From Stegostoma tigrinum (lineage: Eukaryota), in NCBI RefSeq assembly GCF_030684315.1, contig NC_081369.1, positions 13,306,035-13,370,034 on the forward strand: 64,000 nt of DNA, read 5' to 3'. Position numbers and translations under genes: made by a program. The notes beneath the pieces are model-generated. The model saw only the letters and a list, made by a program, of their open reading frames with translations. It searched no databases and was not told the DNA's origin. This document shows, in pieces, positions 2,202 through 55,383 of the stretch (positions within the stretch are counted from its first letter, which is position 1; every line of letters begins with the position of its first letter).

Positions 2202-5200
2202 GGGTGTTAGGTGAGTTGCTTCTACAAACAATTCACCTATGTGGCCAGTAAAGAAGCCAGACAGGAGTTGGTGACTTAATTATCAAGAACTAAATATGGT
2301 AACACCTTTAAAGGTATCCAGTGTGGCTACTAGCCTTGAAACCATGATTAAATACCGTCAATCTGTACAGTAGTTTACAGGGCTGGCTAAGAGTAATGGA
2401 TTTTGGTCAATCCCCTTGACAAAGCAGCGCAGTATAAACGTGCATTTACCTTCATGGGACAGCAATATGTGCGGACAGCTTTGCCGTAGGGATTTCACAA
2501 CTCCCCATCAATATTTCATCAACGGTTAAGCAATGGGTTGGGGGACTTTTCTAGGCCAGAGTGCCTGATACAATACGTTGATGGTTTGCTTTTGCAAACA
2601 GGAACCAAACAGGAGCATTACCAGCTCTTGAATGAGTTTATGCAATTTCTTAAGGAGCCTGGGTTAAAAGTGAATCTGAAAAAAGGCTCAGATAATGAGG
2701 CAGCAAGTGAGTTACTTCGGATGGTGTTAACACCAGGAAAAAGACAGATAGACAAAAAACAAATTTAAACAGCAGCCAGACTTCTTATCCCCACAGATAT
2801 GAATGGATTAACATCATCTTTTGGTTTGACTGTGTACTGTAGAGTCCATATTATGGTGTTACCACAACTGATGTTACCTAGAAAAACACCCCATGGGAAT
2901 GGAAGCCAGAATGCACACAAGCAATAAAAGCTTTGAAACAGAGTTTGGCAAGTGCTCCTGTCCTAAAAACCCCCAAGTATAGTGGACCTCTCTCTGTGGG
3001 GGTGGCTTCAACAGGGTCCACAACATCAGTGGTCTTATTGCAACAGATACACAGTCAATCCAGACCAGTGGCCTACGCCTTGTGCATGCTCACACCAGTA
3101 GAGAAGGGGGTACATAGCATACGAAAAGTATTTTCTCGCGCTGTTGTGGGTGGTACAACATTTATCCACATTGTAAAGTTGACAATTTTGATGAAATGTC
3201 CATCCAGCAGCATCTGAATGGTGTATGTATTAATGAGGGCGCAGTGAACCAAAACAGAACTGGTAGATTGACCCTGTTCTTACAAGGGAGAAACATGGAG
3301 GTAAAAAGGGGTTAAAACTACTACCATGTAGCAGGTAACATGTGGTGTCCCCTGGTAAATTTAGAGTGCCCAGTGGTAAGAGCAGAAGACCCCAAGGGAC
3401 CATACGTATCAAAACAAAAAGGAAGGAATACTGATAAGAACAACACAGGGAATACCCAAGAGAATGGAATGGCCTCTGGAAATCTAGTAGACACATCTAT
3501 TATGGTCAAATTCTTGATCTCGCAAGGAATTAAGGGCTATGGGAAGAGTGCAGGTAAGTGGAGTTGAAATGCCCATCAGCCATGATTAAATGGCGGAGTG
3601 GACTCGATGGGCCAAATGGCCTTACTTCCACTCCTATGTCTTATGGTCTTAAGTGGCAGACGGAGACAGAAATAAGAAAACTGCAATCGAATGACAAATA
3701 ACCCATAATTTTTATTGATGGCTCTTTATCTGTAGAGAATGGAGAACAGAAAACTAGTTCTGGGATCAAAATGGAAATTGAGCAAAGACGAGAATTGGTG
3801 GGTAAAGCCCTCAAACCAAAAACTATGAGGGTGCAAGCAACTGAGTTAGCAGCAGTGGCATTTGTAGTCAGCCACGGAGATAAATTCCACCCAGACGTAC
3901 TAAATATTCAGTCAGTATGTACATGTGCCACGGTCTGATACCTACCCTTATGGGAAGCTAGGGCCTTTGTGTCAGCAGATGGGAAGGCCCATTGGTACAT
4001 CTTTGAAAGGGCGAATGGGAAAGAATCCGGGGTGGTGAAAGCGAAAGCTCATTCTAAGTTATCACCAGTGGGAAATAGAAAGGCAGATGAATTGGCCAGA
4101 TGAGGGGGCAATGGCAGGAGAGAGAGAGAGAGGGAAGAGAGAAAGAATTGGCCTCAAAGGATTTAGCAGGAAAACAAAGAAATGATTAAAAAGTTACATA
4201 AAATATTAGAAGGGAAGGAGTCAGAGGAATAGGAGGAACAAAAAGGCTTACACATAAAAAGGGGTGTAGCATTGTGTGAAGGGAAATTTAATACTAGATA
4301 GAGAAAGGAATCAGATGATTTATAGGTATCATGACATGTATCAACACCAAGAGTTGCAAACCACCTTAGAGATGAAAGAGGTACTTTGCTAGCCACGAAC
4401 GAAAGGGGATGTGGAACATTATGTGAAAAAGTTGTTTGGTATGGGCCCAAAATGACCTTGATAGAAATGTGAAGGGAGGCCTTAGACCCACAAGGCCAAG
4501 AGAGGGGCCCTAGACAAATGTACAGATTGGCTTTGTGGGTCCCCTACTCCCAACTACTGGAGGATGTAAGTACATCCTGGTGATAGTAGATATCTTCACC
4601 AAATGGGTAGAGGCGTTTCCCACTTGAACTGCAATCACTGAAATCCTGATGCAGGTCCTGTTAGAAAAGGTTTTCACACATTGGGGTTTGCCAAGGAGTG
4701 TTGAATGAGATCAAGGGATACATTTTACAGCCCAGGTGACACAGAATGTCATGGCACTGCTAGGAATAAAATAAAGGTTCCATATATCCTGCAAGCCCCA
4801 ATCCAGTTGAAAGGATTAAATCGAACTTTGAAGAATAGGTTGGCCAAAATGGTGTAGCCGCACCAGACCACTTGGATGACAATGCTTCCTTATGTCCTGA
4901 TTATAATAAGATAAACTGCAGCATCCTCTACAGGGTTTAGCCCTTATAAGGTTGATGACGGATCGAGAGATGCATGGCCTGGAGTCACTGCGAGGATTAG
5001 ATCTATCTGAGCCAGAAGTAGACGGAATAACGAAAGATAGGTGGGTACAACAGCTGGTTAAAAATGCAGAAGTGAATTATATCGGCGCAAATAATAATGG
5101 ATAGGGAGAAATAAAAAAGTAAGGCCCATTTTGATTCCAAGAAAAAGCCAATGGAACTGCAGTGGTGCAACAGGTAATAAAAACACCCTTCCTGGCCCCT

Positions 5201-18736: not shown

Positions 18737-19900
18737 ATGAATTGAAAGCGTCCAGTAAGTGACGGTAATCAGTTTGGTGCTACTAAAAAAACAAGGAAAA
18801 CGATCACTTTGGAAAAGAAATTAGAGGTCCTGAAACGGTTTGAGGCGGGAGAACGAGCAGTCACAATCAGCAGAGCGCTTGGCCTACCCCCTACATCAGT
18901 GAGAACAATCCGTGGTAACGCTGACAAAGTCAAACAGAGTGCACAAAGTGTTACGCCTGTGAGTGCCAACAGGATAAGCCGGATCCGGAGCAGCATTATG
19001 GAGAACATGGAAAGACTCTTGGAAGTCTGGATAAAAGAACAAAACCAGTGCAAGGTGCCTGTCAGTTTGATGGTCATCCAGGCAAAAGCCAGAAGCCTGT
19101 ATAACAACTTGCGGAATGAGCAGAGTGCGCATTCACAGTTGGAAAGTTTCAGTGCTAGTTGAGGTTGGTTTGAGCGCTTCAAGAGACGTTACATAGAACA
19201 TAGAACATAGAACAGTACAGCACAGAACAGGCCCTTCAGCCCACAATGTTGTGCCGACCAACTGTTTGCATAACATTAAAGTGAGCGGTGAAGCATCTAA
19301 TGCTGACCCTGAAGGGGCTGATGTATTCCCTGCCCACTTGAAGGGAATGATTGGAGAAAATAGTCACTCATCAAGCCAAGCCTTCGCCACTGATGAAGCA
19401 GGGCTTTACCGGAAACGTATGTCACAGAGAACTTACATCTCCAAAGAGGAGAACAATGAGTACGCCAGCAACCGCAGAGAATCTCATGATGCTGGCCCTG
19501 AAATTCATCATGAAGTCATGACCTCAACAGGGGAAATAGGCTTTGATAAAGTCAAGGACACTGACAGTGTGGAATTACAGGTGCCCTGTGGTGATGAATT
19601 GACCAATGAAGAATTAATGCAACCGGAGAGTCAACGAGCTGAAGACGAAGATCGCACTGAAACCGTACCCCCTCGAGTACTGTCAACAAAACGATTGTCA
19701 AAGGCTTTCCAGCTCATTGAAGAGGCATTGAAATCTTCACTGAGGGTGACACAAACAGAGAACGTAGTGCCAAAGTGAACAGGGCGGTCAACGAACATGT
19801 TAACTGTTACAGGCAGATCTACCGGCAGAAGAAAATGAAAACCATCCAAGATAAATTGGATAAATTTCTCAAGGTTGTTAACAATCCTGGCCCTCCATCT
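18737..19900 (+). pseudogene. Tigger (TIGD1-like) transposase pseudogene
   Basis: MN*KRP..KKTRKTITLEKKLEVLKRFEAGER (psq HTH), MERLLEVWI..IQAKA..FSAS*GWFERFKRR (CENP-B HTH), then HNIKVSGEAS..DEAGLYRKRM..TYISKEE. Most of the DDE core is deleted. A CR1 tail is inserted at 19191-19260. Confidence 0.88.
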
Positions 19901-38160: not shown

Positions 38161-38590
38161 CTAGATCATATCTACCCATTCAAGGTACTCGTGATTATTG
38201 TGTTTAATTCTGTGCTTTTTGTTGACAGTCCAGAGGGACCAGTTGCTGTATTCATCAGGTAAAGTGAAGTGTGTTTCTGTGGCTCCATTTAATCCTTTTT
38301 TACTCCATATTCATATATAACAAACTGGATCAGTGCTTGTGCATGATCCTGAAATGACATTGCTGTCTGTCTACAACCACATTTTTGAGATGATTAAATC
38401 CTTACTAAGCTTCGATTTGATCCATGTTCACGGCAGTCAACGTGACAGCAACCAACAAATGTGCATAGTCTTAGGCTGATGTAGTCCAGGCTTACAGCAG
38501 GATGAAGTTTAATTCACGATGTTGTCTCTGAATTGTGCCTTGTTCACATGGTATCTTTGTACTGACTGTTTGCTGTACTTTTGCTGTCAG

Positions 38591-39569
38591 GTGTGACTCT
38601 GGAGAGGCAAATGACCAGAATGTGCGTGCATGCCGACAGTTCCAGCATCATATCAAATACCTGAAGATTTTGTGCAATCAGTCTTTAGAAGCAAATCGCA
38701 AGAACTTTGTCCAAATTCTACACAACTTGTCTGAATCGGCAACAGAACTGTTGGGCCTCTCCACTGTGTGTATTGGTGAAAATCCTTTCTTCTATTCTGG
38801 GCAGGACTTGCTGCAAAGTATCAAAAGTTTATTTAAAACAGCCTCCCATGTACCTCTCCGCCACATTGACTTCCGAGAAATGCCGTTCACTTTGGATGAT
38901 AACATCGTCCAACTTGTCACCAGCAGAAGTCCCTCTTTAGAGAGTTTGTTCATCAATAATAAGACACTTGTATGCAAGGTGACTTCTGAAACTCTTCAGG
39001 AGGCCCTGAGGACTTGCCCAAATCTGGCTGCTCTGGGATTGTTTTATGCAAGCCTGACAGAAAACATTCTAGCTGAGCTGCTGAATGCCAAGCGACCGCC
39101 ATTGAAACTCCTTCAGCTACACTGTGAGCGTATGGATAAATATAATCCAACTATCTCAGCTGAAATGTGGGAGGCTCTGGCGAAGAGATACCCTACACTT
39201 TGTGTGGACATCGAGCTGGACCATACAGTCCCTGCTAAGAAAATACCCCAAATCCTGCAGCCTACTATCCCAGTGGTCAGCCTAGAATTAAGTACCTTCA
39301 CTTTTATGGTGGAGCAAGTCAACTTTATCTCTCAAAACTATCACAACACGTTAAAAAGGATTGTTCTGCAAACAACGTCCTCTGATGAACTGAACCAGGC
39401 TTTGATGAGACTGGCATCTTCCTGCTTGTCTTTAGAAGAGATTCATTGCTACTGTGTGGTGGCCGTGGATGTGGTGCATGCTTTCATTCTGCACTGTCCC
39501 AGACTCTGCAGATACACACTGAAAACCTCTAAAGAGCCACACCCCTGGCTGCCAGCAATTCTACGATGA
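38591..39569 (+). CDS. FBXL8: FBXL8 final coding exon (leucine-rich-repeat region); spliced protein 371 aa
   Basis: Acceptor tttgctgtcag|G completes the phase-2 AGG codon into the long ORF: CDSG..CIGENPFFYSG..IDFREMPFTLDD..LESLFINNKTLVCKV..EEIHCYCVV..CPRLCRYTLK..EPHPW, stop 39567-39569. These motifs match FBXL8, and its position upstream of HSF4 agrees. Confidence 0.93.
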
Positions 39570-46085: not shown

Positions 46086-46369
46086 AGCAGGGATGAGACG
46101 GAGGGTTGGTCATGGGATGAGACCGGGAGTGGGGAGATTTTGAAACTGGTAAAGTCCACATTGAGACCTTTGGGTTGGAGGCTCCCAAGGCAGAATATGA
46201 GGTGCTGCTTCTCCAGTTTCCGGGTGATGTCATTATGATGCTAGAGGAGGCTCAGGATGGACATGTCGCCTAGGGAGTGCGATGAAGTGTTGAAGAGGTT
46301 CCCGTCTGGAAGGTATTGTTTGTCATGAACAGAGTGCAGGTGCTCTACAAAGTGGTCTCTGCGCCTCCA

Positions 46370-46566
46370 AGGAAATGAGTTACTCACCTATGAATCCCTA
46401 GAATCTAACTTGTCTTTGTAGCTACAGTGTTTATGTGCTTGTCCAGTTCAGTTTTCAGTCAATAGTAAGCAGCAGGATATTTATTGTGGAGGACTCAACA
46501 ATGGGAATGAATCTTAAAGGGAGGTGGTTTGATTCTTGCTTTCTTGCAATGTTCACTGCCTAGCAG
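46370..46566 (-). mobile_element. Second-family LINE fragment, downstream half of the R2 target (upstream half 50415-50550)
   Basis: On minus, 50550-50415 reads ataaggtcagaagt..agcaagacctggacaacattcaggcttgg..gccacata. 46570-46370 continues aactgctaggcagtgaac..gaatcaaacc. Together they are colinear with 22335-22660. Confidence 0.75.
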
Positions 46567-49500
46567 TTTTGAAACACTCTGAAGGGGCCTTATTTGAGTT
46601 TTACTGTCACGTGTTGACATTTTGGTAACTTCCAAGGAGCAAAATCACAGTGACAGGATCTGAAGGAGGATGGTCCAGGGGCATCCTGGGGCCTGGGACA
46701 ATATACCAAGCGGTGATCCTCTTAGACAACCGTCGTGCAATGGGAAATGTAGAGCAAGGCAGGCCCCTCCAATTGGTTGGCCACGGCCAAAAACATTTTG
46801 TGCATAGTTAAACCTTACAACAGTGCAATACAACCATGAAAATTTATTCAAATTTAATTCACTTAAAATAACTATCTTATCCACCATCGTTAAACATACC
46901 TTGTGTAGGTGCCCACATCAAAGTGGCCTTGGACAGCCCATCACACCTTGGCACTGGAGGTGGGTGTATACTCAGCTTGCGCTGGGCAGTATTTTGTAGT
47001 CTTCATCTGTTGCTGAGTATCTGTAGAAGTTCCAGCATCAGGGAGATGGTGAACCTGGATAAGTCTTGGGCAAACGACTTGTATCTCTGAATGCCCAAAA
47101 CATGCATTAGACAGTCGATTTTCTTGAAACACTTTCCTGGTGCTGCTAAGATGAATCCAAAGAATGAGGGCTTAGCTTGTTGTGTCAAATTTTTGATTTC
47201 TCAGTCCTGATGTTCATACATTGAGGTCTTCCTGGTCCAGGTCCTCTCCAAGGACTTCTGGGTGTGTTCAAAACATGCCATCACACCCATTAGGGTGATC
47301 CTTCAGTCCTTTTTGAAGATGAGGTCCGGCTTCCATAGTTTTCCTTCCTTATCCTTTATCCTCAGCTCCAAGTACTTCATCTAGCTGTATTTACCAACAA
47401 ACTGGTGCAGTTTCTCCACTGTTTTATTATGCGAGCATTATTAATGAAGGGGGAGCTTCCTGAGATGTGTGAGAGTGTTTCCCAAGGAGCATTGCACCTC
47501 CTGCTTTCTTTGTTTAGGTAGGGTCTGCCTCTGGTTAGGATTGTCCTGCTTTGGTGGTGGTTGCACCTGAGTACTCAACTGTTGATTAACTTTGATGATT
47601 TGATCTGGAATCTGTTTTTGCCCATGAAATGGATATGCGTCATTCTTGTAGTATTATATTCCAAGGTTTGACCACTTGGCTAGCTCCCTGTCGCACGAGG
47701 CTTTGCAGTCAATATTGTTTATTGTAAGGTGTTCTGGGATTGGTGGATCTGGGAGTATCTCCAGCTCTGCTGATGGGTTCTTGTTTGAATTTGTCTTAAG
47801 TCGGTAGGTCTCAACATCTTTGAGGACTTTAAGGTGTCCCAGGCCTTCAGTTTGTCCCATATTGTCTTATTGTCAGAACTGGAAGGAATCCCAGATCAAT
47901 AAGTTCTTAGATTTTCTAAGCAACTCACATTTACGAAAAACAGCCACTGGGACCTGATCTTTGAGTTGAGGCATACCCAATCCTCCATGTCTGCTTCTTG
48001 AATAAGTTATACCATCTGAGGTGGTAAGTGTAAGATTTCTTTGACTGGGATCCGAATAATGGCAGCCGTTTCTGAAGACTACTTTCGGAAGAGTATTTTC
48101 AGAACACAGCCCTTCAATACTGGTTGTATTATTTGTGCGCTTATCTTTGAGTTGAGTGAAGGGCTTCAATAGACAGACTCTTTCGGTAGGTGTTTGTGTC
48201 CAATCAAGTCAAATGCCATAGTAAGTTTGATAAAGATAACTGATCCGTTCGGCACCTTTGATGATGTTGGCCAACGTGGTGATATTTTCATTGCAGCCGA
48301 AGGTCACTGCTAAAAAACAGTTTTTGTCTGAGTTTAATTTGAAACATGCCATTTAAGTGCTTCTCCATAATTTTCGTGAAGAGGCAAAGCAACGTGGGAC
48401 CAATTGTGATAGGCCTCCACTTATATGTCTCTCAGCTTCTCTAGCTCTTCTGTCTTTGCAACGAGAACAGTTTCGCTCTTCTTCAGGGGCTCTGGGATTG
48501 CACGAGATCTCAACCACAAGGTGAAGAGTCGTGAAACCCTGGCTGTGTCGCCGTCATGAATCTTCTGGATACATCCCACCTTCATGTTGTTGGGTTGCGC
48601 CGCACTGCTGGGGTCAATTCCTTTGATGGCTGTATCAACAACTTCTTCTTTGGTGGGTCACATGAGCAATTCATCATCCTTGCTTCTGATATTTAGCTTG
48701 AATCTGTTCAGATTTGCCTTGTTGTTTGGGGTGGGAAATTTTGCAAGGAAGGTTTCCAGCTCTTCCTTGGACAGTGGACATGCAGTGATGGCTGAATGTT
48801 CCGTGACCTGTTGAGCCAGCTACCTCTGTCTTGCTTGTAGAGTTGTTGAGTTGCCATGAATTTGGATTTCTTCACTGCCCAGCGTCTTCTTGCTCCTGAA
48901 TTCATCCCCAATTCTTCTACCTTTTTTCTTCCTTTTTTCCATCTTTGGTTTTTCCTCCTCTTTTTCCCTTCTCTTCCATCTTCAGTCCTTGGAGAAGGTT
49001 CTTCTCCATTAACGAGGAGGTCTGTGATACATTTGATATGCGCTAGTCCCAGGCTCTAACCTTGAATTTCCCTTTCTTGCTTATGAGTTCTTCCACCTGT
49101 GCAAGTTGGTCATCTAAGTCTCGGTGTTCCGGCGTGCAGGCGAGAAGTTCGATAGTCCTCTTTTGCCACTGGACACCTGAGGATTCAACTTCAGGGTCTT
49201 CTCTACGGGTGGCTTCTGGAGGTTCAGACACTGGGGCTTGAGGTCCCACATTGCTATTTTGCAGTATCCTCCAGTTGTCTGAGATCTGTTTAGGTGTTTT
49301 TTTAGTTAGCATACTGGTTTTTTTTTGATAAAAGTGCAACCTGCATACTGCTGTTCCAACTGATGAAGAAATCTTGTCTTGTCTTCCATCCATTTATAAG
49401 CTTTCCTTCGTTTGGATGTTGTCTTGCAGATTTCTACGTGCTTCTCGTTGCAATATTCTGCATGCTTTTGACATTCATGTTGGCTGAGGCCAGTGTTGAT

Positions 49501-50414
49501 GTGAATGTTACTCACATCCTGAGCATCCCCTGATTGTTTAGAAAGGCCAGTGCCATTATATTTCACATAACGACAAGCTATAGAGTGATATTCTCTGCTG
49601 TTCTTGCATTTTGAGAATATTCTTGACCTGATGTATCCTGGCCAAGTGGTCTCTAAAGGTCCCCATGGTTGGAAGGAGGGAGTTGTAGATTGCACAAAAC
49701 AGACCACCTGTGGAGTAGCGGATCATGATCTCATTTACGGATGTTCTGTCGAATGAAGGCTCGATTATGACTGGAGTGATATAAGTCATCATCTCCAATG
49801 TTTCCATGCCCTCTGTTGCTCACACATCTTGTTTTCCCTTTAGTTGTATCTTCAGAAGGCCTGAGTTGTGATAATCTGAGCCTGAGGGTGGGCCACCCTC
49901 ACGTTCTCTTCAATAACAGGGTTTGTGTCTTCTACGGCGACTCTAGGTCCTATAGGCCTTACCGAACCTTGACTCATGTAGTTATGGGAATGCGTATACT
50001 GGGTCTCTCCACCATCTCCTCTGTCTGGGTGGAGATAGATTCTTTTCTAATGTGTCATCTGCACTTTTCACAGGTCACTACTAATGAGCCTGGGGGAAGG
50101 TTTTTCTTCCAGGACACATCCCAACTGGACCAATAAGAGTCTTTAACTGTCTCCATTTTATATAGTTTTGTTTTGTGCATGATATTTGGTGGACAAGTTT
50201 CGTGATTCGTGCAGATCAAACAGCCATCTCGCAATTTTTCTAGGAAATATTTAGACAGCCAATAGCCAAGCGGAGTGATGCTTCCAGTGGGAACCTCGAG
50301 GAGGAACAACATTCATTGCAGCAGACAAAACTGTGTAAAAACTACCGCAGCGGTAACTAGCCAGGCACGACTCCCAAGGGAGATCCCTCCAAGAGATTCA
50401 TAGTTACTCCTGCT
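46567..50414 (-). mobile_element. R2-clade non-LTR retrotransposon, near full length, decayed, internal RT deletion
   Basis: Minus frames in order: three zinc fingers (CAIY..RDHLARIH; SKC..YHSIAC; GLSQHE..KH), Myb (KWMEDK..LEQQY..KTPKQISD), KKSKF..QQLYKQDR. RT WRPITIG..LFTKIM and VIFIKL.MAFD..H, then LKP and DGITYS..GGLG. CCHC RRC..ETLSHISG..ARII and RLE KLWKPDLIFKK. A 28S-like 23-mer lies at the 5' end. Confidence 0.9.
50245..50414 (-). ncRNA. Degenerate HDV-like R2 5' ribozyme
   Basis: Minus strand, in HDV order: 28S-derived P1 5' AGCAGGA, CC-TCCTCGA-GGT (P3/L3, 50296-50302), P1 3' TCCCACT (50286-50292), GG, P4, CTAA (50251-50254). P2 is aatgtt/aatatt. Confidence 0.65.
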
Positions 50415-50549
50415 ATATGTGGCCTGAAAGTCACTTGCCAGTTTTCCATCCAAGCCTGAATGTTGTCCAGGTCTTGCTACATTGGGGCACAGACTGGGAG
50501 TTTGATATAGTACATTGATTAACAGCATTCCGACTTCTGACCTTATCAT

Positions 50550-55254: not shown

Positions 55255-55383
55255 ATGAGGAGCCCATCGAGCTGTGCCACTGGGCTCATGGATGGATATA
55301 GCGCTAATGTGCCGGCCTTCCTCACCAAGTTGTGGACTTTGGTGGAGGACCCCGAGAGCAATGAACTGATCAGCTGGAGTGAG
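55255..55383 (+). CDS. HSF4: Heat shock factor first coding exon (start of the DNA-binding domain), HSF4
   Basis: MRSPSSCATGLMDGYSANVPAFLTKLWTLVEDPESNELISWSE, then the phase-0 donor GAG|GTGAGA at the conserved HSF exon 1 boundary. The MDGY-NVPAF leader and the position downstream of FBXL8 favour HSF4. The next exon was not found in the window. Confidence 0.88.

Follow-up and report, generated by a model that had tools for sequence, protein, structure and literature searches.

The 64,000 nt stretch of Stegostoma tigrinum DNA analysed here (NC_081369.1, positions 13,306,035 to 13,370,034 of the forward strand, assembly GCF_030684315.1; hereafter the window) carries, on the minus strand at 46567-50414, a decayed R2 retrotransposon copy that likely records a natural off-target insertion. 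An initial annotation, made from the sequence alone, had placed an R2 element between these limits, and both ends were defined exactly by sister copies on C22, C2, C35, C3, C1, C4, C15 and C23, which match at 64-77% and align from query base 1-2 through base 3848. The order of domains first proposed, namely three zinc fingers (ZnF), Myb, reverse transcriptase (RT), CCHC and restriction-like endonuclease (RLE), was borne out as remnants when the copy was read against an intact relative, L139, giving ZnF-ZnF-ZnF-Myb-RT-thumb-CCHC-KPDL endonuclease. The three fingers and Myb are whole in L139, with weak Pfam matches, and persist in the window as decayed remnants, while KPDLIF and a partial CCHC can be read at 47300-47500. 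Pfam searches with eight window open reading frame (ORF) pieces in or beside the element gave no match. The open frames of relatives (pieces of families A and B, described below) found R2Tg and Platysternon R2 as best PDB matches, the Myb stretch of a relative matched R2Tg, and the best protein matches came from Scyliorhinus (69%) and Chiloscyllium (50%). The coordinates of all features are collected in the table.

Table. Features of the window, with strand and the evidence used
Feature	Coordinates	Strand	Evidence
Decayed R2 copy, family A, shark clade of the 3-ZnF A lineage	46567..50414	-	Sister alignments, trees
28S rRNA-derived leader, start at target position -28, likely ribozyme cut site	50391..50414	-	
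Decayed HDV-like ribozyme region	50245..50414	-	Aligned to intact sister's 5' end
Three N-terminal zinc finger remnants, frameshifted, several ligands gone	49460..49700, approximate	-	
Myb domain remnant	49260..49400, approximate	-	
N-terminal extension and first part of RT	48110..48860	-	
Site of ~0.5 kb deletion, RT catalytic core gone; also in second species	48060..48110	-	
CCHC zinc-knuckle remnant	47450..47500, approximate	-	
Restriction-like endonuclease remnant (KPDLIF) up to ORF end	47003..47340	-	
3' untranslated region (UTR), terminal CAAAA as in family A and B copies	46567..47002	-	
Upstream half of host LINE fragment	50415..50497	-	
Downstream half of host LINE fragment	46400..46566	-	
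FBXL8-like coding exon	38532..39566	+	Atlas lead 0.95
HSF DNA-binding-domain exon	55288..55380	+	Pfam E=0.002, below cut-off

The copy had been described as near full-length, which did not hold. Four sisters carry an extra 485-525 nt at about 48060-48110, marking a deletion in the window that took roughly 0.5 kb out of the RT core, and the QGDPLS and FADD motifs of the RT, one of which is kept in 3/5 sisters tested, are both missing. Each of the three frames contains 42-64 stops, open stretches reach 138 aa at most, and several zinc ligands are mutated relative to L139. The intact ORF with 28S on both sides that marks an active rDNA-resident R2 is not seen in the window, and taken alone this copy is an ordinary dead fossil. 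A contig from sequencing run X1, possibly the source study itself, covers 46332-50477 with 1 difference, while contigs from three studies of a second species (organism B) cross both junctions and display the same insertion and the same deletion, with 239 differences in 3433 nt (~7% divergence). The check for an empty orthologous site revealed none, organism B carrying the insertion. The insertion is old and fixed, and predates a species split.

The host of the insertion is a single long interspersed element (LINE), as had been claimed. A search with the right flank yielded 24 host-LINE loci; 17 of them run in register into the left flank, and 15 of these 17 reach within 5 nt of the junction. 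We take this host fragment to be CR1/L2-like. The junction is blunt within about 2 nt and the window copy has no target duplication; host copies read ..CCACACAAA TGCCAGG, and the A's at the junction may belong to the CAAAA end of the element, so that the join originally given, gccacata to aactgct, is right only to +/-2 nt. The element lies outside ribosomal DNA (rDNA), as first stated: no 28S sequence follows it, and the whole window gave no Rfam match at gathering score. Of the genes proposed on either side, an FBXL8-like exon is present, with no match in Pfam and PDB searches, and an HSF DNA-binding exon, which may belong to HSF4 or HSF1, lies near 55300. Broken frames elsewhere on the plus strand resemble the pol gene (RT, RNase H) of a long terminal repeat element or retrovirus (2490-3935, short frames) and a Tigger/pogo transposase (18746-19775).

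Absent from the initial annotation was the leader of the element, the first 24 nt of which are 28S rRNA sequence that begins at position -28 relative to the R2 site. This start at 28S -28/-27 is common to the window copy, to L031, L032 and L033, and to the related L039. Position -28 is where the hepatitis delta virus (HDV)-like ribozyme of R2 most commonly cuts itself, zebra finch included (Eickbush et al. 2013, PMC3774820). The intact 5' end of the sister family B gave a weak alignment with the HDV model of Rfam, at 17.8 bits (E=2.3) and under the gathering score, and contains a putative P1' able to pair with the leader; the region in the window copy is homologous to it but decayed. The helix names are those we presume to apply from HDV. 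Single-strand folding gave z scores of +0.9 for the window copy, +0.25 for L032, -1.2 for L033, -3.6 for L031 and -2.0 for B, a spread which makes these scores uninformative for decayed copies. A self-encoded, compensated P1 helix in family A was considered and dropped, as its P1' lines up with UCCCGCC-like sequence and CpG decay fits the changes in the leader. Of 61 5'-complete dispersed B copies, 52 carry the leader, 17 starting exactly at -28 and 34 at -28..-25, counts in which two 5' junctions were adjusted by hand; an automatic search of the family-C loci detected no leader. The start at -28, together with a 3' end that is precisely that of the family, supports the original proposal of an off-target insertion copied to its 5' end.

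The initial annotation had raised the possibility that such copies are common, and in this genome they are. Family A, to which the window copy belongs, comprises about 10 loci at 61-76% pairwise identity and is extinct. One of its copies, L033, is located at the canonical site in decayed 28S that covers positions -690 to +103 with 81-84% identity; upstream of this copy, in the same decayed rDNA fragment, a 36-nt tandem repeat of 28S origin occupies L033:1085-1894. Family B occupies the canonical 28S site in rDNA contigs with intact ORFs of 1177-1317 aa, and has at least 116 dispersed chromosomal copies, with a 3' end homologous to that of family A; two of its copies, L126 and L152, retain 357 and 468 nt of upstream 28S. 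Another dispersed B copy, L120 (G000:C4:4075494-4082294), is full-length, with a frame of 1283 aa, 91% identity to the rDNA element and a few conserved positions that differ. Family C and further old, extinct A-lineage groups (L044-L047, L050, L198-L204, L206, L208, L211) are dispersed, several ending at TAG-like flanks, and L206 adjoins 28S while the family-C copy L045 adjoins 11 nt of it. A two-finger R2 with a 1177 aa frame, L194:2773-6303, resides in rDNA and has dozens of dispersed relatives (L253-L302); we call it D lineage from finger number and distance, without labelled references. One relative, L283, is full length, starts at -28 and is 99.4% identical to the rDNA copy, so that leakage from the D lineage is recent. 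In one rDNA unit, about 80 nt of the 3' end of a D element follow the 28S leader region (L193:6227-6333), an extreme 5' truncation.

In the tree of RT and RLE sequences that the initial annotation had called for, the window copy falls in the family-A clade (SH-aLRT 99), inside a shark clade with B and C that is itself nested among vertebrate lineage A R2, Platysternon R2 included. This places the copy in vertebrate R2 lineage A, in a tree built without labelled R4, NeSL, Hero or Utopia outgroups and with decayed rows anchored on L139, which biases them towards L139; the window copy and L139 share 48% identity over 473 columns. A match of the window copy to B residues 701-770 proved mis-framed, and its columns were removed before the later tree. 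The tree of family B is ladder-like toward the rDNA copies. Annotations of close R2 relatives also occur on contigs of 0.25-1.9 Mb in other sharks and, in a turtle, within a fused gene model (P0001, P0004, P0121, P0059, P0103, P0005), hinting at dispersed copies elsewhere.

Family B has also given rise to a non-autonomous derivative of 0.8-0.9 kb, in which the 5' ~650 nt are joined to the 3' UTR, mostly by one internal join. By its structure this is a vertebrate R2 short internally deleted element (SIDE). It has 16 dispersed copies (L213, L214, L216, L219-L221, L224, L226, L227, L231, L233, L238, L244, L247, L249, L250), among which L216 represents a separate, younger deletion, and a related copy in rDNA (L197:5372-6202). 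A long-branch clade in the DNA tree was discarded as an artefact of short SIDE copies whose 1600 nt took in flanking sequence. The window copy is not a SIDE, since it retains most of its ORF and its sisters lack its single-copy deletion.

The landing sites of stray B copies were examined as a set. The 116 dispersed loci comprise 76 from the first 80 places out of 150 matches (the other 4 being rDNA copies) and 40 from later rounds, 11 of which were chosen for their hotspot junction; most duplicate matches to rDNA contigs were skipped. These loci divide into 27 at one CR1-type site, 56 at other sites, 7 with a 28S tail, 16 with a clipped 3' end and 10 without a 3' end, and one of the 56 was dropped for an unusable alignment. 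The tabulation of 3' flanks asked for at the outset showed that the base after the 3' end is T in 51/55 of the remaining non-hotspot copies, followed by A in 41/55 (TA) and AG in 28/55 (TAG). Upstream sequence was tested at 50 sites, leaving out three of four copies at one second shared site, one whose flank consisted of N and one carrying 357 nt of 28S. The 28S motif GGAGTA (-24..-19) occurred with at most 1 mismatch within 32 nt upstream in 28/50 sites against a background of 11.1% (p about 1e-14), and exactly in 12/50 against 0.6%, while its reverse complement gave 4/50 and the 3' flank 7/50. Motif-anchored sites also favour A-12, C-9, C-7 and A-3. The logo published for off-targets of engineered R2Tg agrees with this motif; those off-targets match 28S at -25..-19 with a strong T at -20, and at 4-5 nt downstream (PMC12222951).

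A single site in a repeat receives a large share of these copies. It holds 17/47 B copies in the unbiased batch picked by protein only, and its junction occurs 26 times among 129 B 3' ends genome-wide, rDNA copies included in the 129. There are 9467 empty sites of this type, a lower bound, and the chance of hitting one is 1.5e-6 per insertion. We take the LINE that provides this hotspot to be CR1, and its site, judged from sequence, mimics the 28S target. The upstream CR1 half is kept in 26/27 hotspot copies and in 5/6 of those that are 5'-truncated. The insertions are independent, given the retained upstream half, 24 junction types, the truncated copies and identities to the rDNA element of 75-95%. 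Smaller shared sites hold 4 copies in one case and 2 in another. Clustering by script grouped L109, L140, L225 and L247, and also L093 and L244 (L120 being similar), at shared repeat sites, each resembling the 28S target, and L101, L243 and L249 were seen by eye at a shared, 28S-target-like repeat site. Target duplications of at least 6 nt were found in a single copy, L100. Strays of the D lineage have TAG at 20/25 non-28S 3' ends and the leader start in 10/20; GGAGTA was found at 5/20 (0 exact) and none of 25 lies at the hotspot, a difference between B and D that is weak (p=0.06).

Taken together, we consider it probable, at roughly 0.8, that the window copy arose by off-target target-primed reverse transcription from a leaky but still 28S-targeted R2, its ribozyme-processed RNA having been inserted at a degenerate target and the copy having then decayed. 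The account builds on the observed ends, leader, split host, deletion, age and family placement of the window copy, and on the site motif across the sister family. A master element in a 28S gene would have been co-transcribed with rRNA, and an HDV-like ribozyme would have cleaved the transcript 28 nt ahead of the insertion site, so that the RNA kept the 28S leader. The R2 protein would then have bound and nicked a 28S look-alike, with GGAGTA about 18 nt before the nick and TAG after it, the RNA would have been copied to its 5' end and the end joined bluntly, and the copy would later have decayed and lost 0.5 kb. An rDNA source is indicated by the long upstream 28S of L126, L152 and L033 together with the ladder-like B tree. 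Turnover and homogenisation of rDNA purge copies from the array; such turnover having removed family A from the arrays while strays persisted, dispersed copies exceed those in rDNA in number with the target unchanged.

The site of the window copy itself fits this account only weakly. In 8/24 copies of the host LINE a pattern match to AGT(A/G)A(C/T) does precede TGCC by exactly 16 nt, with spacing identical to 28S, and among family-A sites L031 reaches the top 0.007% and L032 the top 0.9% of background. Several observations nevertheless weigh against the account. The 3' flank of the window copy begins CTGCT rather than TAG, the site has no GGAGTA even at 2 mismatches, and by the B-derived matrix, itself built from motif-anchored sites, it reaches only the top 6-9% of background (the eight host copies, 0.9-28%). 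Of the B sites, 22/50 are without the motif. The 5' end of the window copy has no Rfam match and its ribozyme region folds no better than shuffles (z=+0.9), the -28 leader is no proof of an rDNA source because any full-length stray carries it, and no family-A copy was found in rDNA contigs. In one PRINT study, moreover, off-targets showed little likeness to the target beyond the downstream bases that pair with the primer (PMC11371274). Mimicry of the target is shown for the families, while the window site is at best a weak mimic.

The initial annotation had suggested that this lineage relaxed or shifted its specificity. In the strong form of this idea the lineage is a generalist with masters outside rDNA, like R2NS-1_SMed, R2NS-1_CSi or cockroach BLAG, and the great excess of dispersed over rDNA copies, the presence of families A and C on chromosomes only, the barely target-like window site and the whole ribozyme carried by full-length strays would all fit. 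Family B is, however, intact at the canonical site, L033, L206 and L045 adjoin 28S, stray sites mimic 28S, the B tree ladders toward rDNA copies, and the D lineage leaks too, with the TAG ends and leaders given above. A shift of target is thus decidedly improbable, and for family B already largely refuted; the lineage is best read as leaky, at a rate that may or may not exceed that of other animals. It could also be that sites are chosen by annealing, the rRNA tail at the 3' end of the RNA and the 28S leader on the cDNA pairing with look-alike DNA at breaks of other origin. Primer pairing would explain TAG after the 3' end, several 5' junctions fuse the leader with genomic G-runs, and the motif is commoner in full-length copies (22/32) than in others (6/18). 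Yet five leaderless, 5'-truncated copies sit at the CR1-type hotspot with its upstream half present, motif and leader stand mostly in tandem rather than merged, and D copies share the leader but show few motifs and no hotspot insertion, although that contrast is weak; we therefore regard annealing as improbable.

Other transport, as a displaced rDNA fragment or as R2 RNA copied by a foreign RT (Penelope-like or CR1), seems to be real in this genome. Downstream 28S of 29-354 nt follows 7/116 B copies, 6 of them 5'-truncated; such transport likely accounts for these seven. B copies with a 28S tail or a clipped 3' end (L133, L135, L149, L151, L152, L232, L236, and also L096, L129, L144, L159) often adjoin sequence that we take to be Penelope-like, which suggests that another RT captured rRNA/R2 read-through RNA. 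For the window copy, with its exact R2 ends, its cleanly split host and neither downstream 28S nor a foreign tail, this route is highly improbable. Beyond off-target insertion as such, shark A-lineage R2 might have a standing second target in the CR1-type LINE, with ribozyme-bearing strays forming a reservoir that re-seeds purged arrays. A few full-length strays that carry the ribozyme do have near-complete open frames, as in L120, and a reservoir would, if true, explain the long survival of R2, but we consider this extension unlikely.

Vertebrate A-lineage R2 proteins are under development as tools for inserting genes at safe harbours, and all that is known of their off-target rules comes from rare events seen in cell lines. 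The shark genome provides a natural germ-line catalogue of more than 100 off-target sites with a measurable motif and a recurrent LINE hotspot; one host offers a contrast of A and D lineages, and the intact elements make the idea directly testable. Shark R2s were already known (PMC5035012, PMC12247875, PMC13188248), and domain contacts and junction classes are described in PMC11601368 and PMC11204384. The literature searched reported neither strays of R2 in sharks nor a hotspot in CR1, although subscription journals, Repbase/Dfam and supplements, notably the shark R2 tables of PMC12247875 and PMC13188248, may hold these families. What raises the window copy above an ordinary fossil is the genome-wide record of motif-directed leakage, the strong LINE hotspot and the vertebrate SIDE. 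A 2026 review (PMC13580325) calls the split between specific and non-specific elements an oversimplification and urges graded specificity, noting that present locations can mislead and that the durability of R2 is without a framework.

Among known systems, the closest are the vertebrate A-lineage R2s (R2Tg, PDB 9dou/9nl3; Platysternon R2, PDB 9nl2; shark GCB70372.1 and GCC16572.1), which have the same three ZnF, Myb, RT, CCHC and RLE and the same 28S site as the window's relatives; the window copy differs in being dead, deleted in its RT core and outside rDNA, and its family in having many natural strays. Engineered R2Tg shares the upstream match, the T and the downstream bases noted above, but its off-targets are <1% of events in cultured human cells, whereas those of the shark are fixed in the germ line and recur at a LINE hotspot (PMC12222951). 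Among non-28S copies in Drosophila, R1 strays in repeats likewise have 4-9 bp in common with the target as well as upstream 28S, and a few R2 copies outside rDNA have been reported, but R2 strays there are seldom found and often incomplete, in contrast to the dozens of full-length copies from several families in the shark (PMC2718515). R2-clade elements dispersed outside rDNA, as here, include R2NS-1_SMed and R2NS-1_CSi (PMC5035012) and BLAG (PMC7650587), non-specific R2s being rare and described in flatworms, sponges and a cockroach (PMC5035012, PMC12247875, PMC7650587); these are described as non-specific, while the shark lineage keeps both 28S-site copies and target-like flanks. The B derivative resembles the Drosophila R2 SIDEs in joining ribozyme and 3' UTR, and differs in its vertebrate host and mostly dispersed copies (PMC3414825). 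From R4, NeSL/Utopia and Hero, with labelled members of which the RT was not compared, the window copy is set apart by its Myb domain, which Utopia lacks (PMC12247875), and by relatives at the canonical R2 site.

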